This document shows, one piece after another, positions 2,088 through 21,456 of a stretch of DNA of 39,244 bases (position 1 is the first letter of the stretch; every line of letters starts with the position of its first letter). The notes beneath the pieces were generated by a model. That model was not told the origin of the DNA, made no database searches, and saw only the letters and a list, made by a program, of their open reading frames with translations. The stretch is from a virus: the UHGV virus genome UHGV-0144129. One strand, given 5' to 3'. A program made the translations under genes and the position numbers.

Positions 2088-3602
2088 GTGTATTTGATAT
2101 CGTATGTGGCAACAAAAAATGGAGTTACAATCTTGAAAGTAAGCGAGTTATCTAGCCAAATTGGCCGACTTTACGGCTTAAACAACATCAACATAATTAT
2201 GGGCCGAAACGGTGCGGGAAAAAGTCGTTTCCTTCGTGATATCGAACAAACAATCAGCCAGAACAAGCAGCAATTTTATGTCCGGTATGTAAGTCCAGAG
2301 CGAGCAGGATCGTTCAAGCGTGATGGCACCGTCCTCACAAATATGAGCGACAACCCCGAATGGCTGAGGCACACTCGGGCAGTTAATCAGGCAAGCAACT
2401 TCAAAGCTGCATCGGCTATGCTATTTCGCGAGGCCGAGACGCTTTACTTACGTCGACTTGCCAATACTCCGGAAATTCGAACTGATCTAACGCGAAACTT
2501 TCAGACAGACCGATTAAGTAAAATTAATCAGCTTCTCACTAACATTTCGCTCGAGATGGGTAATGTCGATTATGAGTTTCGATCACTTGTAGATGGTCAG
2601 ATTATTGATCCGGCCCAAATCAGTAGCGGTGAATCGGAAGCGGTTGCATTAGCCGCGGAAATCATCTATTTCTTCGACACAATAGATCCGGAGAAATTCA
2701 ACGTACTCCTCCTCGATGAGCCTGATGTACATCTGCACCCCGACCTCCAAGCTAGACTGGGCAAGCTGATAATCAGTATGCTCGACGAATTTAGAACACA
2801 CGCGAACAGTATTGCCATATGCTTATCCACCCATAGTTCCCCGCTCGTCTGTTCTCTTGCCGCCTCCCCATATGTATCAATCGGCACGAAGAGCTTTGCA
2901 GTGAATGAAATCTCATTGATACCGGCCAGCGATGAACTTCGAAAGATTGCACCATTCTTCGGGCACCCCCTATCGCTTTCTCTTAGCGAAGACGCTGCAT
3001 TAATTTTGGAAGGAGAGGACGACGAACGAGTCTGGCAACAAGCGGCCAGAACATCACAGGGTCGAATAAAAATCTTTCCCGTACTAGCAGGTAGCGTAGA
3101 TCAACAGAGTCAACTTGAGGATTTTTGCGTAGACCTCCTTAGTACACTCTATGACAATCCAATCGCCTTTTCCCTTCGTGATGGCGATGGTGTAATCAAC
3201 GAGTCGCTTGAACATCGCCTACCTCTTAAACGCTATCGCTTACGATGCTACGCTATCGAAAATGTTCTTTTGACTGATTCATGCCTTGCAGTAATGAATG
3301 TTACATGGGTGGAATTTGTAGACGCAGCCAAAAAATGGGTTGAGGATAATCAAACACACTCCGACATAGCGTTGATTGCAAAACTAATGGAATCGAACGA
3401 CCGATTGCGTCACAAGAAGATCAAGAAAATCCGCCAACTCGTCTGTGCTATTGTTGAGTGTAAAAAACCTTGGGAGGTAGTAGTTGGACAAGCAATCGGG
3501 GCATTGACCAGAGAAGACCTTGAAAACTCGAATATGTTGATCGATTTTCTTGGAGGAGAGATGGTCAGCGACGTCATCTTCAGGGACGCAATAAACCCAT
3601 GA
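2088..3602 (+). CDS. OLD-family-like ABC ATPase with Toprim-like nuclease domain (GajA / AriAB-like), putative anti-phage defence protein
   Basis: Walker A GRNGAGKS, ABC signature SSGESEAVALAAEI, Walker B VLLLDEPDVHLHP, H-loop LSTHS. C-terminal half has a Toprim-type glutamate (LILEGEDDE) and a DxD (LRDGDGV) about 60 aa later. Start uncertain: GTG at 2088 or TTG at 2133 preceded by GGAG. Confidence 0.55.
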   Translation: MYLISYVATKNGVTILKVSELSSQIGRLYGLNNINIIMGRNGAGKSRFLRDIEQTISQNKQQFYVRYVSPERAGSFKRDGTVLTNMSDNPEWLRHTRAVNQASNFKAASAMLFREAETLYLRRLANTPEIRTDLTRNFQTDRLSKINQLLTNISLEMGNVDYEFRSLVDGQIIDPAQISSGESEAVALAAEIIYFFDTIDPEKFNVLLLDEPDVHLHPDLQARLGKLIISMLDEFRTHANSIAICLSTHSSPLVCSLAASPYVSIGTKSFAVNEISLIPASDELRKIAPFFGHPLSLSLSEDAALILEGEDDERVWQQAARTSQGRIKIFPVLAGSVDQQSQLEDFCVDLLSTLYDNPIAFSLRDGDGVINESLEHRLPLKRYRLRCYAIENVLLTDSCLAVMNVTWVEFVDAAKKWVEDNQTHSDIALIAKLMESNDRLRHKKIKKIRQLVCAIVECKKPWEVVVGQAIGALTREDLENSNMLIDFLGGEMVSDVIFRDAINP

Positions 3603-3617
3603 GAATGACCTGATACT

Positions 3618-4013
3618 ATGACCACGATTGATCCGCCCTCATGGTATCAGTATTTATTTTATAACCCGCCTCTCAATACACCAAGAGATTGCGGTAAAGT
3701 GGAGCAGCATGATTACCAGCTTTATCTGGCGATAAATGATATTGAGCATACGAAAACGAAAGCAATGTCATCTAAGACCAATAGTATCTGCGAGCAGTTC
3801 CATAAAACGATACTGAACGAGTTTTATCAGGTGACGTTCCGCAAAAAGTTATATGATGATCTTGAAGCATTACAATCGGTTCTTGATGAATGGCGGGTTC
3901 ACTATAATAATGAGCGAACCCATCAGGGAAAAATGTGCAGTGGCCGAACGCCGATGGAAACGTTACTTGATGGAAAGCACATCTGGGATGAGAAAAACTT
4001 AAGCCAGATGTAA
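3618..4013 (+). pseudogene. C-terminal remnant of a DDE (rve-type) IS transposase
   Basis: KTNSICEQFHKTILNEFY ... YNNERTHQGKMCSGRTPMETL resembles the C-terminal end of an integrase-core domain (IS481/IS3-like). No N-terminal HTH or DDE core upstream. No inverted repeats recognised. Confidence 0.4.
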
Positions 4014-4100
4014 TCTGACAGATACCTTTATAAATAGCCGGTAATTGTCAGATCAGGTCTGATCTAATACAACTTAACTGTGTTATGAGCAATACTGAGG

Positions 4101-4877
4101 ATGGATATGGAACCAGAGAAATTTGCTGAAACTGCAATAGGATTTACCAAAAGCCCTCTTGGTATCATTGCACTCTTTATTGTTCTCGTTTATGGATTTG
4201 CCTCTTTCGTCGTTGGCTTTGGTAATGGCTTATCAGAGCATATAGCTCCCCTTATTTATTTCATGGTTTTCTTTCCTGTCATTGTGTTTCTTGGCTTTCT
4301 CTGGCTTGTTGCGAAACATCATAATAAGCTTTACGGGCCGTCAGATTTCAAAGATGAAAATAATTTTTTAAGAGCGCAAATAGCTACAGCAGCATCATTG
4401 ACCGCCGCCACAGCAAAACAGCCTGAAAATAGTGCAGGGGTCACTGAAAGCCAACTGCGAAAAATCGTCAACGTTGTATCCAATGCAAAACGGCAGAGTA
4501 AGCATGAAAAATGGCGAAATCGTATTTTATGGGTGGATGATCGACCAGAAAATAATGTTTACGAAAGACAGGCATTTGAGGCACAGGGAATAGAGTTCGC
4601 TTTAGCTCTTTCAACTGACGAAGCCTTAGAATTGTTAAAAACAAATAAGTTTGCAGCTATTATTTCGGATATGGATCGCAAAGAAGGGGCGCAAGAAGGT
4701 TATGTCTTACTAGAAAGATTACGCGCAATGGGAGACAAAACTCCTTTTATGATCTATGCGTCCTCAGATCTACCAGAGCACAAGAGAATGGCGAGAGAAA
4801 GAGGTGCAATTGGCTCCACTAATCGAGCAGAAGAACTCTTTCAAATTGTCATGGGTGCGATTACCAATGGCTCATAA
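4101..4877 (+). CDS. two-TM membrane protein with C-terminal CheY-like receiver (REC-like) domain
   Basis: Two hydrophobic helices at the N-terminus. C-terminus reads beta1 ILWVDD, beta3 AAIISDMDRKEG (Asp at acceptor position), beta4 FMIYASS, then a Lys-containing segment. AT-rich codon usage. Confidence 0.45.
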   Translation: MDMEPEKFAETAIGFTKSPLGIIALFIVLVYGFASFVVGFGNGLSEHIAPLIYFMVFFPVIVFLGFLWLVAKHHNKLYGPSDFKDENNFLRAQIATAASLTAATAKQPENSAGVTESQLRKIVNVVSNAKRQSKHEKWRNRILWVDDRPENNVYERQAFEAQGIEFALALSTDEALELLKTNKFAAIISDMDRKEGAQEGYVLLERLRAMGDKTPFMIYASSDLPEHKRMARERGAIGSTNRAEELFQIVMGAITNGS

Positions 4878-11656: not shown

Positions 11657-12313
11657 ATGAACGCTCAACTCATCCCCGTATTCAACGGCACTATATCTAA
11701 CGAAACAGCCCTACTTTGTAATGCCCGCGATCTGCACGCTTTTTTAGGTGTTAAAAAGGTGTTTGCAGCATGGATTACAAATCGCATATCAGAATACGAA
11801 TTCATTGAAAATCAAGACTATATTTTGCTTTCCAATTTGGGAAAGCAAACATCTGGTAGAGGCGGCCACAACCGCAAAGAGTACCACCTCACCCTTGATA
11901 CAGCCAAAGAGCTGGCGATGGTCGAGCGTAACGAAAAAGGTCGCCAGGTGCGACGCTACTTCATTGAATGCGAGAAACGTTTAAGACAACAAGAAACAAA
12001 AGTGGAGAAGGTCTTGTCAGGCTTCATGCCCGCCATTATGGAGGCGATCAAGCTGGAAGACAAAAAAGAATACAGCGCCCCACTGAAGCCCGGCTACCGT
12101 AGCCTGATTCATTCGCCGTCTGGTGTTCTCGGCCTGACGGAGAACTCACTGCTGATGAATTTGCTGAACCAGTTACAGGAAGACGGGCACGATGTATCGG
12201 GCGCGGCGGCGGAGCTGACCACCATGTTCTGCTACATCGTTGGTGTGAGCAAATGCCTGCGTGATATCCAGACGCACGCGGAGTACATCAACGACAAGGC
12301 AGGATTCTTCTGA
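11657..12313 (+). CDS. antirepressor-like protein (second Ant; Bro-N/ORF6N-like N-domain plus shared Ant C-domain)
   Basis: N-terminal region ([22 protein letters not shown]...) resembles phage antirepressor / Bro N-terminal domains. The C-terminal 80 aa are near-identical to the C-terminus of the Ant at 13323-14267. Confidence 0.55.
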
Positions 12314-12542: not shown

Positions 12543-13178
12543 ATGCCACAACAACTGCTGAATCCGGCAAAGGTAACTGAGGTTTTCGCTCATCTGAACG
12601 AAACTCCAGACAACCGCGCCCTGTATTCAGAGTTAGTGAACGGCAACGATGTCACATCTGATGTCAAAGGCGTTTCTCTGGCTCCTGGATACCGCGTTGT
12701 CCGTGTAGACGATCGTAAGAAAGGCGAGATTCCACAGGCGCACTTTGAACTGTCATTGATAAATGACCTCACCGAAGAGGTAGTGTATTACAATCGTGTC
12801 ATTATCCAGCCTGACAGCTATCTTAACTGCCGTCCTGTCACGCAGATATTGGTATGGAGAACCCAGAAGCCTAAGCATCGTGCTGTGCTTCATGATTTCG
12901 CCGGCATCATCTTCATGAACTACCTCTTGGAACGGTACGATATCATCGTGTCAGATCGCAACCAGACTCATGAAGGCATGTCGTTCTGGCAGGCTCGCAT
13001 GTATGACGCACTGGAACTTGGCCTCCACCTCTATGGTTACGACATGATGACATGCGAGCTGATAGAGATGAATAACGAGGAAGAGCTTGAGAAAGGTGAA
13101 ACCTGGTTGTGGGGTGATGCGGAAAACTTCCAAAACAGATTGGCCATAATTTCAAAGCATAAGCTGCCAATAAAATAG
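12543..13178 (+). CDS. hypothetical protein (cargo between the inverted repeats)
   Basis: 211 aa ORF with normal codon usage and its own terminator. No motif recognised. Confidence 0.5.
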   Translation: MPQQLLNPAKVTEVFAHLNETPDNRALYSELVNGNDVTSDVKGVSLAPGYRVVRVDDRKKGEIPQAHFELSLINDLTEEVVYYNRVIIQPDSYLNCRPVTQILVWRTQKPKHRAVLHDFAGIIFMNYLLERYDIIVSDRNQTHEGMSFWQARMYDALELGLHLYGYDMMTCELIEMNNEEELEKGETWLWGDAENFQNRLAIISKHKLPIK

Positions 13179-13299: not shown

Positions 13300-13555
13300 C
13301 ACATCCCTGTGCCGCCGTTCTGTCAGAAGAACCCTGCCTTGTCGTTGATGTACTCCGCGTGGGTCTGGATATCACGCAGGCACTTGCTCACACCGACGAT
13401 GTAGCAGAACATGGTGGTCAGCTCCGCCGCCGCGCCCGATACATCGTGCCCGTCGTCCTGTAACTGGTTAAGCAGATTCATCAGCAGTGAGTTCTCCGTC
13501 AGGCCGAGAACACCCGACGGCGAATGAATCAGACTGCGGTAGCCGGGCTTCAGCG
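13300..13555. repeat. right arm of the ~255 bp inverted repeat (3' end of ant plus 3' UTR)
   Basis: See the left arm at 12083-12337. Confidence 0.7.
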
Positions 13556-14267
13556 GATAACCATAACATTTTGTCTGTGTTTTAATTGCCTCACGAAGCG
13601 CATCTAACATCTTGACTGCCACTTCATCATTCTCTGATGCAGATCCAGCAGGGAGATGCTCCCCTTCAAGCGGAACCCGAGCAACAAGAGACAACGCTTC
13701 GGCGAATTGATCTTCATCAATTTCTTTGTACGAACAGCCAAAATGAGATTTCAGTGACGACCACATGGTGATCATCGCCTTAGCCTGTTTTTCTTTTGGC
13801 AGAGACTGACCGCGACTCATGACGAGTTGTTTAATGGCTTCCTGCTGTTCAGTGGTTATTTTACCCGGCAACGCCTTTTTAGCTTTGCGTGGGTTAACCA
13901 CATGGCCTTTAGTCCAGTACTCGTAGAGCACATCGTCACACTCTTCCTGATACTGGATTACCTTGTCGCGGATTTCAGGGCGGACTTTGTTAGGGCTGAT
14001 GGTTTGCAACCAGCCAGCAAGTTTGCGAAGTGCCAAACAAATAATCTCACGGCGCTGTTCATCCCCAGGAAGCTGCATTGTGATTTTCACAATGCAGGTT
14101 TTAAACCGCTGCTTCATTTTCGTAAACTGTGAAGCCCAATCCATACCCATGCCTTCAACGATAGGTTTCATTGGGGTGTACGGTTCTCCGTTGTGATTGA
14201 CAACATAAAGTTCTGCGCCGTGGAATGGCACGTTGATAGTAGATACCGCTGTTGCTATACTCGTCAT
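13323..14267 (-). CDS. ant: antirepressor Ant (AntA-type N-domain plus shared C-domain)
   Basis: N-terminus (INVPFHGAELYVVNHNGEPYTPMKPIVEGMGMDW) is AntA-like. Directly downstream of the arc-like gene, as in P22 immI. Confidence 0.7.
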   Translation of the reverse strand: MTSIATAVSTINVPFHGAELYVVNHNGEPYTPMKPIVEGMGMDWASQFTKMKQRFKTCIVKITMQLPGDEQRREIICLALRKLAGWLQTISPNKVRPEIRDKVIQYQEECDDVLYEYWTKGHVVNPRKAKKALPGKITTEQQEAIKQLVMSRGQSLPKEKQAKAMITMWSSLKSHFGCSYKEIDEDQFAEALSLVARVPLEGEHLPAGSASENDEVAVKMLDALREAIKTQTKCYGYPLKPGYRSLIHSPSGVLGLTENSLLMNLLNQLQDDGHDVSGAAAELTTMFCYIVGVSKCLRDIQTHAEYINDKAGFF

Positions 14268-14339: not shown

Positions 14340-14507
14340 TTATGCCACGCTATTCTTCTCACCAGTGAGTCCATACACTTTCCTCAGCTGATAGATAATC
14401 TCTGTATTGAACTTTCGGCATTCTTTTTCGCCATTTCTTTCAATAGCTAACTTCACATCGTCCGGAAAACGAACTCGTCGTTGACACATCTCTTTTGCTT
14501 TTTGCAT
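14340..14507 (-). CDS. Arc-like ribbon-helix-helix repressor
   Basis: Start is the internal ATG (MQKAKEM...) with SD AAGGAG 7 nt upstream. The RRVRFPDDVKLAIERNGEK...NTEIIYQLRK region has an RHH beta-strand plus two helices. Sits between the mnt-like gene and ant. Confidence 0.55.
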   Translation of the reverse strand: MQKAKEMCQRRVRFPDDVKLAIERNGEKECRKFNTEIIYQLRKVYGLTGEKNSVA

Positions 14508-14627: not shown

Positions 14628-15059
14628 ATGAGCAGAGAAGATCCACAACTAAGGATCAGACTTCCCGTTGAAGTAAAAGAAAAAATAGAAATTTCTGCAA
14701 AAGCCAATAAGCGCTCAATGAACGCTGAAATAGTACAACGTCTTGACACCAGCTTTCTGAAAGATATTCATGAAGATGACGTAATTTCTGCTTATGAAGC
14801 AAAAATTATTGCAAACAATGCACGGCATGAAATATCAAATATTATTTTCAAAAGAACTTTTAATGAAATCAATAAGAAAATAACACTTGGACATACAAGT
14901 TTTTATATAAACCTTAATGACCTTGAACTGGAATCACTTGCAGATAATGATTACCAGATCATCTTTGAAAAAACATTTAATAAGCTCAATGAACTAGGTT
15001 ACATCATCTGTGAAAACTCATGGGATGCAGATGGTTTTGGAATTGAAATACCTGAATAG
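14628..15059 (+). CDS. mnt: Mnt-like ribbon-helix-helix repressor with a long AT-rich C-terminal extension
   Basis: MSREDPQLRIRLPVEVKEKIEISAKANKRSMNAEIVQRLDTSF closely parallels the N-terminus of P22 Mnt (sequence recalled from memory). Divergent from arc-ant. About 60 extra C-terminal residues compared with P22 Mnt. Confidence 0.6.
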   Translation: MSREDPQLRIRLPVEVKEKIEISAKANKRSMNAEIVQRLDTSFLKDIHEDDVISAYEAKIIANNARHEISNIIFKRTFNEINKKITLGHTSFYINLNDLELESLADNDYQIIFEKTFNKLNELGYIICENSWDADGFGIEIPE

Positions 15060-15149
15060 GAAGAACAAAAGGCGTGTACATATTACACGTCTTTAATACA
15101 ATTGAAAAACGCCACATTACTGATGTATGTTACAACAAGGAGCGATATT

Positions 15150-15713
15150 TTGAAAACCATATCTATATTAAAGGTTGCATTAGGCGTCGCTATTATTTTG
15201 ACTCTCTCAATATTGTTTTATTTTTACCACAAAAAAACTGCTATTGCTCTTGATGGTCACGCGGCAAACTCATTTTTCTCAGAGTACATAGTGCCGCTAT
15301 CAGGAAGCGGTATAACAAATAAATATACTGACTATGACATCAAATATGGAATTGATGATGGGGAGACTATTGCATTACATGTAATCATTAAAAACCTAAT
15401 GACAGTAAATAAAAATACAGACTTCAACGATAAAAATACAATACATCACAACAACAGCAAAACATTAATTTCTTATAGTAGCAACATCTATACGGATAAA
15501 TACCTAAAATACATCTCAGAAGATACAATAAAAGCAACCAGCGAAAAGTTAAAAAACATATATTGTGCATCCGGCAGTTTTCACAAATTATCGCCGCAAG
15601 AGCGTTTATTCTACGAAGCAAGAAAACAACGTAAGTCAATAATATTACATTATTATGCTGATTCAGGGGAGTCACTCATATTTAATATTGGGGTTTCCCC
15701 TGAATCATGCTAA
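15150..15713 (+). CDS. AT-rich membrane-anchored moron protein (candidate superinfection-exclusion or defence factor)
   Basis: Best start is TTG at 15150 with SD AAGGAG 7 nt upstream (the ORF track starts it at 15102). N-terminal TM helix (ISILKVALGVAIILTLSILFYF), then an N/K/Y/I-rich domain. Opposite strand to the flanking virion genes. Confidence 0.45.
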   Translation: MKTISILKVALGVAIILTLSILFYFYHKKTAIALDGHAANSFFSEYIVPLSGSGITNKYTDYDIKYGIDDGETIALHVIIKNLMTVNKNTDFNDKNTIHHNNSKTLISYSSNIYTDKYLKYISEDTIKATSEKLKNIYCASGSFHKLSPQERLFYEARKQRKSIILHYYADSGESLIFNIGVSPESC

Positions 15714-15724
15714 AGGCGTTTAAC

Positions 15725-18700
15725 TCACCGCATCACCGGATCCACCTGGTTTATTAGTGGCGCAATCCAGAACAGGTTATTGCCTGGTATCAGGGTTCGG
15801 ACATTATGCACAATACGATCACCGGCATCACCATTCAACACTCCTGCGGTCACATCAATGATGCTATCCGCAAGACCAAATGACGGTCCGAATAGAGATC
15901 CTACGAATCCACGACTGGCATACCTAGACTGTGTGCCAGTGCCAAATAAAGCCCCCAGCCCAACAGCACCACCAGTAGCCTTTTCAGCCATGTTGTTATA
16001 TTCCATCAATGGCCCAAGAATACCGGATCTATCTATACCCTCAAGCACCAGCTTCTCTGGTGACCAGTCAACATTTTTCCCTTTCGATGCTTCTTTTAGC
16101 GCATAGACCAGTGAGCCAAGAGCAATCTGAAATGCAGTGCCATAATAAAATTGCGCAGTTCCTTCCTGTAACCCACCAAGTAGCGCACGGTTGTATGAAG
16201 CCGTTGTGAATGATTTAAACTGAAATATCGTTCGCCCCATTGGAGTACTCGCCCATAAAGGTGTGTCACCAATACCGGGGGTGATGATAGTGTTATTAAC
16301 GTCTTTCAGAACCGCTGACTGGAATACTCCGGCAACGTACTGATCGTCCCATTTATCAAAGTTACCAATGTGCCATCCATCAATTACCTCACCATGTTTC
16401 TCGAACTCACTGCGAATACGCGCAGCCATATTGTCGTTGATACCGAGTTTTGCCATGCGACGTGCAGAAAACGCACCAGACAAAATACCGTCTGACGTGA
16501 GCATTCCGTTCATGGATTTGTTTATGTCATTAAATCGATCCATGAGTGTCAGCTTGCCGAAGGCATCAGTAATTCGCTCCATTCCTGCTTCGACTGCTGT
16601 TGTCCTGGAAGAACTGTCAACAAGATCACCAATTGCACGAGAACGTGAATGTAGTACAGCTTCCAATCCAATCCCCATCTTCAACATCTCTTCTTTGCTG
16701 GCCTTAAATGCCGGTGATTGGGATATCTGAGAAGCATAGCCTTTCATGGTGTTACGGAAACCATTAACCATAACCCCTCTGGCCAAATCTGGAATAGCTG
16801 ATACTGTCATTCCACCGAGTTTGGTCGTGAAGTTCACATCCCGCAGAAAAGCGCCAGCACGAACAAAAAACGAAGACGGATCATCAGGCATACCATATGT
16901 ACCAACAAGACGATCGCGTAATGCTGTTATGTCTCTGAGATCATTTGCTCTTGATTTTGAAAGTCTGGACTGTTCTTTCCGTAATTCCTTTTCGTACTTT
17001 CGCATTAATGAATCGAGTTTACCCTGAGGAACAACTTCACCATTGCTCTCATAACGTGCTTTCAGATTTGCCACACTTTCGTCATATTTCGCCTTTATTT
17101 TTTTAGGCACTTCCCGTAACAGACTGTCATATTCGTCCTCAATTAATTGCAGACGCTCAGTCATAGTTCGTTTGCCAAATGTTCTCGTCAGCTCAATTTC
17201 TGCTGCCGCTTCACGGATATGACGTTGCAGCACGTAATTCACATCACTTTCAAGATAATCCCTGATAAGACTATCAGGAACATTTAATGTTCTTTCTTTC
17301 GTACTACCTGCGGCTTTTACAGAAAATACGCTGACAAAATCCTGTGGAACCTTAGCACCAGTAATTTTATTAATTACGATATCCGCTGCAATTTCAGCAT
17401 CCTCAGGATCCAGTGTTTTATTTCCTCTCGACCACCAGTCAACCAAAATACGTCGAAATTTATCGCGTTCACTGATTATTTTTCCAACTTTATATATGCG
17501 TGGGAAATAGCTTGCCTGGCCTAATGCTTTCAGTTCTTCATCTGGCGGCAATAAACCAAGCTTTTGCATTTCAACTTTCACCCGATTTAATACAGTTCGC
17601 ATCGCCTGCGCCGTTTCCTGAACAACAGGATTAGCATGCACATCACCGCTTCGCATAGCATTCCCAACCTGCTGACGAAATGAATCAAAACTCATGTCAC
17701 CACCATCAGCTTTATACTTTGCGTATGCCTGTTTATTTCCGACAACAACAGCAGCTTCTTCACGCTGCCATCCACGTGTACGGGTTTCTACAGCTACCGG
17801 TGTTTCAATCCCCCTTTCATTTCCTTTAAGGGTGAAATTATTTTCGGCTAACTCCAGCGTTGTTTTTCGCACCGTCTTGGACGGAGACTCCATTAACCTT
17901 GTCAAAGGAGTAAGATAGCTCCCTGCTTTCCATGCAGCCTTTCCAACCCACCCACCGGAAACAGGGGTTAAATCATCCAGAGTCGCTGTATCAATTTTCA
18001 TAGCACCAACACTACCACCATCGGAAAGCGAAGCGGCAGCCCTGTCAGTCGCTGATGTAATGCTCATATTATCAAGAGCATCAGCAACCTCACGTGTGGC
18101 TGCAGCCCGGACGGATGGCGAAAGCGCAACACCAGCACTGGCAAACACGCCGCTCATCATCGCACCCGCTGCAACGTGAGCGGCACTTTCACCCCATGAG
18201 CGTGTTATTTGCTGATTATTCAGTACAACCTCGCTTAATGCTGTACCGGCAGCACCAATCGCAATCTGTGAGCCAATACGCGCCAGTGCCCCTCCTTGAG
18301 CACCGGGAATAAACATTGACGCAACAGTAACCGGATCCATTCCCGCAGCAATACTGGCAAGGGTTCCAACTACGCCAGCATCAGACAATAAACGTCTGTC
18401 TTCATTTTCATCATCTATCTGCTGCTTAATCCACGCCGTTTCCTCTGGCGATCGGGAATCTGCAAATTTCGCCCCCCAGTATTCATAACCGTGCAACTCA
18501 TTTTTATCAGCATATGGGTTATAACCCTCGACCGGTTCAAACTGTCTGGCTGGGCGGAAAAAACCAGACAGAATATTGTTCTGTCGCATTGCAGCCCCCC
18601 ATACGGAAGGCTCAGGTGGCAATGGCTCAGGATTAGCCCCTTCCGGAAGGGCAACATCAAACCCAGTTTGTTCCGGCAAAACATTACCTGACGGGATCAG

Positions 18701-18739
18701 TCCGTTATTAAGATCTTCAGCTTGTGCATAAACTGGCAT
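15725..18739 (-). CDS. internal virion / ejection protein (T7 gp15/gp16-like by position)
   Basis: 1004 aa ORF, the last of the large genes between tail tubular B and the tail fibre. Assigned by synteny and size. Confidence 0.5.
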   Translation of the reverse strand: MPVYAQAEDLNNGLIPSGNVLPEQTGFDVALPEGANPEPLPPEPSVWGAAMRQNNILSGFFRPARQFEPVEGYNPYADKNELHGYEYWGAKFADSRSPEETAWIKQQIDDENEDRRLLSDAGVVGTLASIAAGMDPVTVASMFIPGAQGGALARIGSQIAIGAAGTALSEVVLNNQQITRSWGESAAHVAAGAMMSGVFASAGVALSPSVRAAATREVADALDNMSITSATDRAAASLSDGGSVGAMKIDTATLDDLTPVSGGWVGKAAWKAGSYLTPLTRLMESPSKTVRKTTLELAENNFTLKGNERGIETPVAVETRTRGWQREEAAVVVGNKQAYAKYKADGGDMSFDSFRQQVGNAMRSGDVHANPVVQETAQAMRTVLNRVKVEMQKLGLLPPDEELKALGQASYFPRIYKVGKIISERDKFRRILVDWWSRGNKTLDPEDAEIAADIVINKITGAKVPQDFVSVFSVKAAGSTKERTLNVPDSLIRDYLESDVNYVLQRHIREAAAEIELTRTFGKRTMTERLQLIEDEYDSLLREVPKKIKAKYDESVANLKARYESNGEVVPQGKLDSLMRKYEKELRKEQSRLSKSRANDLRDITALRDRLVGTYGMPDDPSSFFVRAGAFLRDVNFTTKLGGMTVSAIPDLARGVMVNGFRNTMKGYASQISQSPAFKASKEEMLKMGIGLEAVLHSRSRAIGDLVDSSSRTTAVEAGMERITDAFGKLTLMDRFNDINKSMNGMLTSDGILSGAFSARRMAKLGINDNMAARIRSEFEKHGEVIDGWHIGNFDKWDDQYVAGVFQSAVLKDVNNTIITPGIGDTPLWASTPMGRTIFQFKSFTTASYNRALLGGLQEGTAQFYYGTAFQIALGSLVYALKEASKGKNVDWSPEKLVLEGIDRSGILGPLMEYNNMAEKATGGAVGLGALFGTGTQSRYASRGFVGSLFGPSFGLADSIIDVTAGVLNGDAGDRIVHNVRTLIPGNNLFWIAPLINQVDPVMR

Positions 18740-21456
18740 TATTTAGATCCCCACGAAAAGTAATCTTTAAATTTGTCCATACGTTCGTTATGCAGGCGCT
18801 GATACTGCTCATCCAGAGCGCGATGCTTGTCTTTGAAGTTTCGTATAGCCTGTCCACGCATAATTTCTTCCTGCTCGTACTGCTCCCGTTCCTGCTGCAT
18901 TTTCTTATAGGGTTCCCAATCTTCTAGTGATGGTTCCCAACGCATAGGACGCCCATGTTTGTTATAAAACGGCTGGACCCGATCGATGCCATTTTCATCC
19001 TTAGTTCTTACCATAATGGCGTAATCACCATTACGGGGTGTTAACACGTCAGGGGTTATGAATAATTCTCCATTAATACGACTCTCAGGGGTTTTTGTCT
19101 CAACTACAGGAGCATTACCTGACGTGATCCCAAGCAACGTCGGGCTGGTTGTTATAATCTCTTTGCGCTCACCGTACATCAGCCGTTCTTTTTCAGCTTT
19201 CCACTGCGCCGCCTGCCAGCCTGACGGCCCATATTGATAAAGCGCCTCCGGTGCATATTTCATAAACTGCGCTTCTCCGTTAACCTCGCTGATACTCCAG
19301 GTGCGGGCTATCTGCTGGTTGGTCATTTGCTTCGCTACGTCAGCGTTACCACCAGCAACGCGGTAGTTAATGTCATACAGCGTCTGATAGTCATTACGGA
19401 ATCTAGCTGCTTCCGGCGTCTGGTCATCCGCAGACGGATCCCAACGGAACCACTGCGCCATATTGCTGACAGCAGAATTCATCGCCTTGCTGCGATCATT
19501 TTTGTACTCTTTTGAACTCTGCGTTGATGCCAATTGAGCTTTAAGAGCATCGGTCTGGTTGTACGTAAGGTTCTGCGCCTGCTCGATAGCCGCATCAGCA
19601 GACATGCCAGAATCAGTTAGTTGCTTAACAGTCAGATAAAAACCCTGCATATCCTTCGGCATATTTCCAATAGATGCATTGTCTGTTTCATATAACCGAC
19701 TAAACAGTTCCGCCGCATTTTTAACCACTTCCTGATTGCTGGATCGGGATACTGCTGAAAGCTGCGTGATGACCTGCGAAGGCATTATGCCAGTCTGAGC
19801 CACAAGCCGAACAACCCCATCATGAGTGGAGGCATCATTAATACGAAAGTTCTGCGCCATTTCTGTGTAATCAGCAGCTTTCTGCATTGACTTGTTGCTT
19901 GGGTCTAATTTTTCACCTATTGTCAGCGCCTCATTGAATCTGCGTGAATCCCGTTGCGCCTGAATTGCTTCATTTGATCTCTGAAGCAATGCAGACAATT
20001 TTCCGTAAGCATCGAGTTTTAACGCATAGTGAGGATCGTTAACCTCAGGCTTCACTTTCTGCATTTCTTCTTGCTGCTGAGAAGGAGGCAAATACTGAAT
20101 TGCCTGGAATATTCTCGCGTTATCAATCGCTATATCCAGTTGATTGATTATTTTATCTGCGTTTTTTCCATACCCCCTGATGATGGTCTCCTGAGCCGGT
20201 ATATAATCTGGAACCTCACCGTTATATAGCTGGGCCATGGTGTTATTAATAGCTGGCTCAAGCTGTTCTAATATTAACTTCCTTTGCTTTTCTATCTGAC
20301 TATTAGCAAGGTTATCTATTTGATAAATAGTCAGCGGATCCATTCCAGTTTTATTTTTTCTATATCGGGAAAGCCACCCTTGTGTTTCTGATGGAAGATT
20401 TCGGATAAATTCTTCTTCTGATATTTCACCTTTACGTGGATCACCGACTTTAGCGATCAGTTTATCCACGTTACCCATCCCCCAGTTATATGCTGCTCCG
20501 GTCAATATTTCGGAACCGTACTTACCATACAGTTGATTTACATAGTCACTGGCGAGCATTTCATGCTGTTGTTCGTCCGTAGGGTTGTATTCAACGCCAC
20601 GCTTGGCCGCCAGTTCTTTTCCTGTGCCCGGCATTAACTGGTATTTCCCCTGGGCTCTCTCTCCAGAAGATGTTATCGGTCCCTCAAGAAGACTACCATC
20701 AGGATTAAAATGTCGATCACCTGATTCAACAAGGCGTATGGCACGCATGTCCATGCCTCCAGAATCATTTTTCTGAAACAGACCATTTAGCCATCCTTCT
20801 GGATTGGCAGCGGCATAATTCTTCGCCCGCATTTCTGTGGCACTGCGATCATCACTTTCTATTTCTTCCAGAATGCGTTCTTGTGACCATCCCCTGGCAG
20901 CTCCATATCTGGCAATGGCTACCATTCTGGAATTTCTGGCTAAAGTGGCAGTTTGCGGGTCATTCCAAGCATCCGCTTCATTTTGTATCCATAATTTTCT
21001 CGTTGCCTGATATTGCTCATCTTCATAGGCATTTGTCTGCCCTATCTCATGTCTGAGAACTCCAGTACTGAACTGAATTTTCTGTGTTCTGGCTTGTTGC
21101 AAAAACATATTTCTTGCAGCTTCATCAGTCAATGAAGCAGCTATTTCTTCCACATCCTGATCAAATCCAGATATGTACTCTTGCCCCTTACCAATCGCAT
21201 TTTTGCCTTGTTGTGCATAAAAACCGGTTTGAGGGTTATAAAGACGTTCATTGCTGCGCTGATTAAGCTGAAGGATGGCATCCTGAGACAATGCAACATT
21301 CGCTTTCTGCCTGGCTTCACCATATGCCACCGCATACTGATCTGCGACATTCGCCAGCACTTGGCCTGCTTGAGGAACATCGAAGGTCTGAAAACCACCA
21401 GTTTGCACACCACGACTTTGCACCTGACGTCCGGATGTAGTAGGAACAACAGGCAT
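18739..21456 (-). CDS. internal virion protein with lytic transglycosylase (SLT) domain
   Basis: SLT motifs LVESG ... GKYQLMPGTG ... AAYNWGMGNV (ES / GLMQ / AYNAG pattern). 905 aa. Position matches T7 core proteins. Confidence 0.65.
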   Translation of the reverse strand: MPVVPTTSGRQVQSRGVQTGGFQTFDVPQAGQVLANVADQYAVAYGEARQKANVALSQDAILQLNQRSNERLYNPQTGFYAQQGKNAIGKGQEYISGFDQDVEEIAASLTDEAARNMFLQQARTQKIQFSTGVLRHEIGQTNAYEDEQYQATRKLWIQNEADAWNDPQTATLARNSRMVAIARYGAARGWSQERILEEIESDDRSATEMRAKNYAAANPEGWLNGLFQKNDSGGMDMRAIRLVESGDRHFNPDGSLLEGPITSSGERAQGKYQLMPGTGKELAAKRGVEYNPTDEQQHEMLASDYVNQLYGKYGSEILTGAAYNWGMGNVDKLIAKVGDPRKGEISEEEFIRNLPSETQGWLSRYRKNKTGMDPLTIYQIDNLANSQIEKQRKLILEQLEPAINNTMAQLYNGEVPDYIPAQETIIRGYGKNADKIINQLDIAIDNARIFQAIQYLPPSQQQEEMQKVKPEVNDPHYALKLDAYGKLSALLQRSNEAIQAQRDSRRFNEALTIGEKLDPSNKSMQKAADYTEMAQNFRINDASTHDGVVRLVAQTGIMPSQVITQLSAVSRSSNQEVVKNAAELFSRLYETDNASIGNMPKDMQGFYLTVKQLTDSGMSADAAIEQAQNLTYNQTDALKAQLASTQSSKEYKNDRSKAMNSAVSNMAQWFRWDPSADDQTPEAARFRNDYQTLYDINYRVAGGNADVAKQMTNQQIARTWSISEVNGEAQFMKYAPEALYQYGPSGWQAAQWKAEKERLMYGERKEIITTSPTLLGITSGNAPVVETKTPESRINGELFITPDVLTPRNGDYAIMVRTKDENGIDRVQPFYNKHGRPMRWEPSLEDWEPYKKMQQEREQYEQEEIMRGQAIRNFKDKHRALDEQYQRLHNERMDKFKDYFSWGSK

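Follow-up and report, generated by a model that had tools for sequence, protein, structure and literature searches.

An exported prophage protein encoded beside a T7 gp16-like ejection gene, in the position of P22 sieA, as a candidate superinfection-exclusion factor

Here we describe a gene for an exported protein of 187 residues, located at positions 15150..15713 on the plus strand of an epsilon15/phiV10-like (Uetakevirus-type) prophage, and show that its product belongs to an uncharacterised, genus-spanning family of periplasmic prophage proteins. The window, by which we mean the whole stretch of DNA analysed (39,244 nucleotides), is 96-99% identical to Escherichia phage TL-2011b over much of its length, and in a near-identical E. 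coli genome the prophage adjoins yfgI. No gene other than that for a T7 gp16-like ejection protein accompanies the family at all 41 loci. Drawing on synteny, cellular compartment and cassette behaviour, on which the functional reading rests, we tentatively suggest that the protein may be an exclusion factor, expressed from the prophage and active in the periplasm, which keeps phages with a T7 gp16-type ejection apparatus from delivering their DNA, a possibility we take seriously without regarding it as assured.

Prophage exclusion proteins shape phage infection of clinical and food-borne E. coli, Klebsiella, Serratia, Providencia and Proteus. To our knowledge, very few such proteins have a known mechanism, and SieA is the sole exclusion protein that we know to have been described for short-tailed temperate phages. 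If the proposed function is correct, the family would constitute a new structural class inside the known category of superinfection exclusion, and would offer a soluble and tractable handle on the assembly of the T7 gp16-type conduit, in contrast to the multi-pass SieA, which is harder to handle. It would also account for some of the limits on host range among epsilon15-like, TL-2011b-like and T7-like phages, a point of relevance to phage therapy and typing, and would single out the 3' end of the ejection operon as a region in which to seek more exclusion genes.

The reading frame at 15150..15713 is a real gene. The open frame in which it lies extends for 217 codons, a length reached by none of 2000 shuffles of the local sequence, the longest shuffled frame being 190; this result, together with conservation across genera, argues against a junk ORF in AT-rich DNA. 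A Shine-Dalgarno sequence, AAGGAG (15138..15143, plus strand), precedes the TTG start by 6 nt, and the frame closes with TAA. Both the strong ribosome-binding site and the TTG start had been proposed in the first-pass annotation, and both are upheld, the same start being given in the TL-2011b record (gp39) and by PGAP (WP_046123177). The ACAAGGAGC motif around the Shine-Dalgarno sequence is kept in the Klebsiella-type homologues, where it precedes an ATG that is the frame's first start codon and aligns with the TTG. The DNA is indeed very AT-rich (32.8% GC, against 47.2% for the window), and with the upstream mnt-like gene (32.4%) it forms the lowest-GC part of the window. The body of the protein was likewise correctly described as rich in N, K, Y and I, which make up 35.8% of its residues.

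The labels TL-2011b gp39, WP_046123177 and phrog_8033 denote one and the same uncharacterised protein and carry no function. The match to phrog_8033 is full-length (E=6e-127; function unknown), and the protein is 98% identical to gp39 (YP_007001990), annotated as a hypothetical protein. Its exact sequence is present on 867 public contigs and occurs in hundreds of public E. coli assemblies, Shiga-toxin-producing lineages included. A tblastn search of 50,697 phage records returned only the two GenBank entries for TL-2011b, and scans of genome contigs gave no match. Word-indexed homology searching reached only relatives above 93% identity, and exhaustive HMMER searching was required for the distant ones: over 1.84 billion representatives it recovered 17 proteins, including several that match over the full length at 28-48% identity, and IMG/VR scans with contig look-ups supplied 40 further loci of the family. 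Relatives at 28-52% identity come from prophages of Escherichia (coli, albertii and marmotae), Klebsiella (several species), Serratia, Superficieibacter, Providencia and Proteus. Named members are nearly all entered as "hypothetical protein", apart from one Serratia entry, "ubiquitin family protein", which is uninformative, and a literature search on TL-2011b returned no functional work on gp39 and no mention of the protein. Searches of Pfam, NCBIfam and PADLOC gave no significant match for the 187-residue protein, and Pfam no accepted match among 11 family members. Thus the original statement that the gene lacks recognisable homology stands for characterised families, and falls in that an uncharacterised family of homologues exists.

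Alignment of the family revealed invariant residues at Y46, P49, Y62, Y66, G67, I74, L134, Y138, C139 and K162, and nearly invariant ones at F42, F43, Y168, Y169, F178, P184 and C187. Cys139 (codon at 15564..15566, plus strand) falls at the end of a predicted long helix, and Cys187 (15708..15710), within a C-terminal SPESC motif, is its presumed disulfide partner; the two are the sole cysteines of the protein, and the pair fits a periplasmic disulfide. Residues 84-113 (15399..15488) form a lineage-specific N/K-rich insertion, modelled with low confidence, which is missing in Serratia/Providencia-type relatives and carries a 7-residue deletion in one allele.

The N-terminus (residues 1-33; 15150..15248, plus strand) has the features of a Sec signal or signal-anchor: an n-region containing K2 and K8, a hydrophobic core of 18 residues, and then HKKTAIA, with a possible cleavage site at AIA|L (HKKTAIA|LDG). 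A Kyte-Doolittle scan at a 19-residue threshold found one hydrophobic segment, at residues ~4-27. Klebsiella-type members start with MKKLIPLLLIFPFIAFA|S(P/T)DL, which is a cleavable Sec signal peptide of textbook form, and the Serratia/Superficieibacter-type members have similar cleavable signals; in the others, the 187-residue protein included, the hydrophobic core is longer than in the Klebsiella type and may be either a signal-anchor or a slowly cleaved signal. A signal peptide or signal-anchor was present in every family member read, with compartment cues that comprise the positive n-region and acidic residues past the hydrophobic core, and no canonical lipobox (L-x-[GAS]-C) was seen in these sequences. 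Because relatives carry cleavable Sec signal peptides and the two cysteines are conserved, the body of the protein is predicted to be periplasmic. The single N-terminal transmembrane anchor reported at first is therefore better called an export signal for the body, of the Sec signal or signal-anchor kind, the count of one hydrophobic segment being correct.

The genetic setting closely recalls phage P22. Upstream of the gene lies a 143-residue Mnt homologue (14628..15059, plus strand), which consists of an Arc/RHH N-terminal domain (PF03869, E=1e-14) and a C-terminal extension of ~55 residues. BLASTP against P22 Mnt gave E=2e-13 with 31% identity over 82 residues, covering the whole of Mnt, and by these matches the upstream gene is a genuine P22 Mnt homologue, which confirms the placement beside mnt given in the first-pass annotation. 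It is divergent from the arc-ant genes, which encode a small Arc-like repressor (14340..14507, minus strand) and the antirepressor Ant, with a P22_AR_N domain (13323..14267, minus strand). On the other side, separated from the stop codon of the 187-residue gene by an 11-nt gap between convergent stop codons, is the gene for a 1004-residue T7 gp16-like internal virion (ejection) protein (15725..18739, minus strand), which matches the phrog_342 profile beyond its N-terminal ~200 positions. This gene is preceded by those for a T7 gp14-family core protein and a 905-residue internal virion protein annotated with an SLT lytic-transglycosylase domain (18739..21456, minus strand). The claim that the gene opposes the structural genes is borne out, and the gene converges on that for the 1004-residue protein. 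The lysis cassette lies far away, at ~5.3-7.4 kb in the window; a spanin role was considered and rejected, the prophage having its own Rz-like gene elsewhere.

In annotated P22 the order is 16, sieA (minus strand), orf59a and mnt, the last three reading towards 16, and then arc, ant and 9, with a terminator for mnt and a separate promoter for sieA; in the window it is the gp16-like gene (minus), the 187-residue gene (plus), a hairpin, the mnt homologue (plus), and arc and ant (minus). The window layout reproduces the P22 16–sieA–mnt layout exactly, so that the suggested equivalence with the slot of a P22 sie gene holds and the positional case is stronger than first thought. The accompanying remark that the sie genes lie beside immI is right for sieA; sieB was not annotated in the P22 immI region examined, and is located elsewhere in the P22 genome. 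Like sieA, the gene lies 3' of the last ejection-protein gene, convergent with it and downstream of mnt, on the opposite strand between the last ejection-protein gene and the tailspike gene, and both products are small envelope proteins of temperate podophages of the Enterobacterales. SieA itself blocks injection via the ejection proteins gp16 and gp20, and its types A-C share several predicted transmembrane helices and a conserved cytoplasmic motif, FxRYPxEAxxFNK (PMC10883804). Membership of the SieA family was tested by similarity, by multi-pass topology and by motif, and rejected on all of them: BLASTP against P22 SieA gave E=0.14, through hydrophobic residues alone; SieA is a multi-pass inner-membrane protein, whereas the 187-residue protein has a single N-terminal signal or anchor and a globular body predicted to be periplasmic; and a regular-expression search for FxRYPxEAxxFNK gave no match. 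The ejection partners differ as well, being P22 gp16 and gp20 for SieA and a T7 gp16-type protein here. More broadly, we found no sequence similarity to known exclusion proteins, SieA included, and no homology to the annotated exclusion families in Pfam, PHROGs and PADLOC.

Between the mnt homologue and the 187-residue gene is an 11-bp hairpin with a flanking A-tract and T-tract (15068..15094; -13.1 kcal/mol, z=-5.0), which resembles a bidirectional terminator. In Klebsiella-type loci a hairpin occupies the equivalent position upstream of the Shine-Dalgarno sequence, and there it has a U6 tail on the minus strand; late transcripts would therefore cross the gene in antisense and stop just beyond it. 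This arrangement points to a gene that would be expressed in the lysogen and shut off while the phage grows lytically. A promoter-like site, TGTACA-16-TACAAT (15075..15102, plus strand), overlaps the 3' side of the hairpin, as a consensus match only, and in a promoter scan such sites were no commoner than in shuffled sequence.

Examination of the family loci underlined the association with the ejection gene. At 40 of 41 loci the family gene faces a gene whose product is homologous to the 1004-residue gp16-like protein (42-99% identity), the two converging with 0-34 nt between the family gene and the 3' end of the gp16-like gene or with a 29-nt overlap, and at the remaining locus (L036), which is cut by the end of the contig, a gp16-like homologue also adjoins the family gene. 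The linkage spans three phage backbones, including T7-like gene orders in which terS and terL come next: in the Klebsiella-type loci and in L008 the minus-strand order is the gp16-like gene, the family gene in antisense, terS and terL. Arc/Mnt genes do not share this constancy, since they stand beside the family gene only in the E. coli group and in L041, and the Providencia/Proteus loci have neither mnt nor arc. In L041 the end of the Arc/Mnt-like gene overlaps the start of the family gene, and the latter would therefore be co-transcribed with a kind of gene that is expressed by the P22 lysogen.

The slot itself exchanges cassettes, and the 187-residue gene is an accessory (moron-type) cassette gene within it. 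The family gene is absent from phiV10 and epsilon15, which have different ejection proteins, and Klebsiella phage ST512-KPC3phi13.3 and phage EC.W1-9, with gp16-like homologues at 36-40% identity, carry other genes in the slot. Among 44 complete E. coli genomes with a ~99% identical gp16-like 3' part, the cassette of Mnt homologue and 187-residue gene is present in 36; others, for example MS8345, have in its place an unrelated 175-residue protein (phrog_21690) with an N-terminal membrane segment, and at this junction similarity ends within a few bases of the stop codon. The slot neighbours in other loci are also uncharacterised secreted or membrane proteins. The strict synteny could mean vertical inheritance in a stable slot and not functional coupling.

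Structure prediction, suggested at first pass as a check, yielded a fold that resembles AspS and PA3611, with moderate scores and non-significant E-values. The alignment-based AlphaFold model had a mean pLDDT of 71, with core blocks at 85-93 and the insertion at residues 84-113 unconfident; the single-sequence model (pLDDT 52) was unusable beyond the N-terminal helix. The top three Foldseek hits were the type II secretion pilotins AspS and EpsS and Pseudomonas PA3611 (PDB 4FTF, 6I2V and 3NPD), at non-significant E-values, and BFVD (viral structures) gave no match. AspS has the order alpha1, beta1-3, alpha2, alpha3, beta4-5, alpha4, and a conserved disulfide joins its alpha2 and C-terminal helices; PA3611, which has been proposed as a secretin binder, shares this disulfide, with an extra helix after beta3 and a signal peptide, and lacks the lipobox (PMC3542185). 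In the predicted model the element order appears to follow that of AspS and PA3611, and C139, which closes the long helix, and the C-terminal C187 would take positions equivalent to the disulfide cysteines. As in PA3611, the model has an extra element after the third strand and the lipobox is absent, and the Sec signal and predicted periplasmic location that go with this fold are found in the 187-residue family. The differences are also considerable. True pilotins are outer-membrane lipoproteins with a lipobox, the 187-residue protein has no sequence or profile similarity to AspS, EpsS or PA3611, neither 4FTF nor 3NPD was recovered when PDB sequences were searched with a profile, and the gene adjoins prophage ejection genes and not a secretion operon and encodes a 30-residue insertion. 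A remote structural resemblance to the AspS/PA3611 pilotins is therefore moderately supported by grey-zone scores, and we do not claim family membership. A profile match to iota-carbonic anhydrase in the PDB (E=2e-6) was rejected, being the sum of three ~12-bit repeat matches on a beta-strand pattern and finding no support in the fold searches.

We favour the exclusion reading because the association with one type of ejection module, the sieA placement, the periplasmic location, and the low GC content with cassette exchange all fit it. In the proposed mechanism, the gene would be transcribed in the lysogen, probably from its own weak promoter, and, lying antisense to the late operon, would be silenced by late transcription during lytic growth. 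Sec would export the small protein and place a body of ~150 residues in the periplasm, probably anchored in the inner membrane in the E. coli lineage, where the signal-anchor would be cleaved slowly or not at all, and released in soluble form in the Klebsiella lineage; a Cys139-Cys187 disulfide would probably stabilise the body. After adsorption of a related phage, the protein would bind the incoming ejection apparatus at a part that is exposed in the periplasm, on the T7 gp16-like 1004-residue protein and/or its 905-residue SLT partner, prevent assembly or function of the trans-envelope DNA conduit, and so keep the DNA out of the cytoplasm, acting as a non-homologous functional analogue of P22 SieA. 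Lysogen expression, the disulfide, the binding target and the exclusion phenotype are the elements of this scheme that we infer. Secretion precludes the packaging of a phage protein into the virion, and the protein, absent from the naive cell at infection, could therefore be of no service to the phage's own entry.

The pilotin-like model suggests binding of an exposed helical or C-terminal peptide, and permits a more specific, and more doubtful, version of this scheme. A protein with the pilotin fold would latch on to a segment of T7 gp16-type ejection proteins that faces the periplasm, probably at their C-terminus, and would cut short conduit assembly. Its gene would move together with the ejection module that the protein recognises, occupy a hotspot of cassette exchange at the operon's 3' end and, embedded in antisense within the late transcript, be expressed in the lysogen alone; the protein might then define a new, structurally distinct class of exclusion. 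Precedents for the general mode of action exist. P1 Sim undergoes signal-peptide processing. Like the protein proposed here, T4 Sp (PMC11436027) and P1 Sim are phage-encoded periplasmic proteins that block DNA entry after adsorption, although both are myovirus proteins with different penetration machinery.

The predicted fold could equally indicate a host target, and a host-directed role in lysogenic conversion, if rather unlikely, is the alternative to be taken most seriously. A pilotin-like protein would here bind a component of the host envelope, such as a secretin S-domain (T2SS GspD or a pilus secretin) or another outer-membrane machine, changing the secretion, surface structures or fitness of the lysogen, with any phage exclusion being indirect, via receptor or assembly. 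The sole structural relatives found, the AspS/EpsS secretin pilotins and PA3611, point this way, and the periplasmic location, the low GC content and placement, which suit an accessory gene, and the secreted or membrane nature of slot neighbours elsewhere agree with it. Such a role would, however, leave unexplained the constant gp16-like linkage on three backbones and in six host genera with differing secretion systems, and the protein lacks both the lipobox of true pilotins and any sequence-level link to the AspS family. Distinctly less probable is that exclusion is achieved by a different route, in which the protein acts as a periplasmic inhibitor, or "immunity protein", of the SLT domain in the incoming 905-residue protein and stops peptidoglycan penetration, not conduit assembly. 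The ejection module is annotated with such a domain, T4 Sp is a periplasmic exclusion protein that modulates phage lysozyme (PMC11436027), and a small disulfide-stabilised periplasmic protein would suit the style of a peptidoglycan-hydrolase inhibitor; yet the gene adjoins the gp16-like gene and not the SLT gene, fold searches gave no match to known lysozyme or transglycosylase inhibitors, and the Pfam Imm42 match of a single family member (E=0.004) is noise.

A function in the lytic cycle, for example as a periplasmic antiholin or lysis-timing sensor or in another aspect of phage development, appears improbable. T4 RI consists of a signal-anchor plus a small periplasmic domain, an architecture that the 187-residue protein resembles, and the gene is conserved across related phages; against this, the late operon occupies the other strand and its transcription would run antisense to the gene, the lysis cassette is distant, and related phages with the same ejection protein lack or replace the gene. 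The first-pass annotation had offered abortive infection beside superinfection exclusion, and this half of its proposal, an abortive-infection or toxic membrane effector, we consider very improbable. The N-terminal membrane segment and a location of the kind that often houses defence genes, the P22 immI neighbourhood and prophage accessory slots, would suit it, as would a weak PADLOC match to ThsB/TIR. That match (E=0.013, 13.9 bits), however, is non-significant, falls mostly over the low-complexity insertion and was rejected as noise ill-suited to a periplasmic protein. Neither a cytoplasmic NADase nor a pore-forming anchor can be reconciled with a body that is predicted to be periplasmic and, in the Klebsiella relatives, soluble after cleavage; the protein has only one hydrophobic segment, and a partner sensor gene is absent. 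The cleavable signal peptides of relatives, the conserved cysteine pair and the lack of a significant PADLOC match thus disfavour an abortive-infection gene.

Comparison of sequence variants indicated that the family is maintained. In the Klebsiella group pN/pS was 0.22 for the family gene and 0.14 for the neighbouring gene, which is purifying selection, and the family protein is therefore functional. In the E. coli group the ratio was 0.89 for the 187-residue gene and 0.13 for its neighbour, on only 10 nonsynonymous and 4 synonymous variable sites; a value of ~0.9 could mean relaxed constraint. The value also looked like diversifying selection, a reading on which we do not rely, 14 variable sites being too few and the Klebsiella set purifying. 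Across lineages, the family protein retains 29-52% identity where the gp16-like protein retains 67-78%, and by this measure of sequence identity the family diverges faster than its neighbours.

The site at the 3' end of the gp16-like ejection protein gene, occupied in the window by the gene for the 187-aa exported protein (15150-15713, plus strand), was found to hold different genes in different prophages. The prophage of E. coli MS8345 (NZ_CP025401.1) is near-identical to that of the window, yet its equivalent slot (L051, 3448-3975) encodes an unrelated protein of 175 aa, assigned to phrog_21690 and carrying a membrane segment at its N-terminus; comparison of this protein with the target family revealed no similarity. 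The occurrence of unrelated proteins in the same slot of near-identical prophages indicates that the position 3' of the gp16-like gene acts as a hotspot of cassette exchange. A further set of small accessory genes is crowded into this slot in another locus (L047, 4546-5850), where two small neighbouring ORFs of 87 and 65 aa, presumably HicB/HicA-like, lie ahead of the family gene and are followed by the gene for a 240-aa protein that combines a membrane segment at its N-terminus with a Pro-Ala repeat.

The Providencia/Proteus-type loci contain a second gene, oriented divergently from the family gene (minus strand; L005 7352-7879 and L042 5330-5872). Its GC content is low, at 27-35%, and its product of 175-180 aa has a signal peptide and contains cysteine. 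No Pfam match was obtained for the proteins of either locus, nor a PHROG match for that of L005. Within the family itself, five database entries (P0003, P0007, P0009, P0010 and P0019) are frameshifted at A-runs in lysine codons. The window gene has a poly-A run at 15550-15556, within AAGTTAAAAAACAT, and equivalent runs are present in its relatives; the gene was intact in all 19 of the E. coli-group loci translated. Either sequencing errors in the homopolymers or on/off variation by strand slippage could account for these frameshifts.

In the minus-strand terminator hairpin of the Klebsiella-type loci (~5847-5885 in L031, and the aligned positions in L029-L040), the U6 tail leads straight into the start codon (ATG) of the gene for a small-terminase-like protein, so that termination and initiation of terS translation overlap. 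This arrangement suggests that the packaging genes in these loci may be controlled by read-through or attenuation.

Upstream of the family gene, the full 143-aa Mnt homologue is encoded in the window (14628-15059, plus strand) and in 17 other loci. Its counterpart in phage TL-2011b (L027, 5569-5910) bears the annotation hypothetical protein, and its frame extends no further upstream than residue 31, giving 113 aa; a frameshift or a sequencing error may account for this.

Between the tailspike region and immI lies a second antirepressor-type gene with an AntA domain (11657-12313, plus strand), the C-terminal 121 residues of whose product are 73% identical to the Ant C-terminus. It is followed by a 211-aa ORF of phrog_1349 (12543-13178, plus strand), which has no assigned function and no Pfam match. 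Upstream of the prophage lysis genes, three plus-strand ORFs (2088-4877) encode a 504-aa ATPase of the AAA_15/AAA_21 (AbiEii/OLD-like) type, a fragment of an integrase core (rve_3) and a 258-aa protein that contains a response-regulator receiver domain. The otherwise near-identical locus of strain OkiPb01683 lacks all three, and these genes may represent an insertion of a defence or mobile kind at the edge of the prophage. The prophage carries a tRNA-Arg gene (anticodon TCT; 31103-31179, plus strand), which lies between its portal region and its terminase region.
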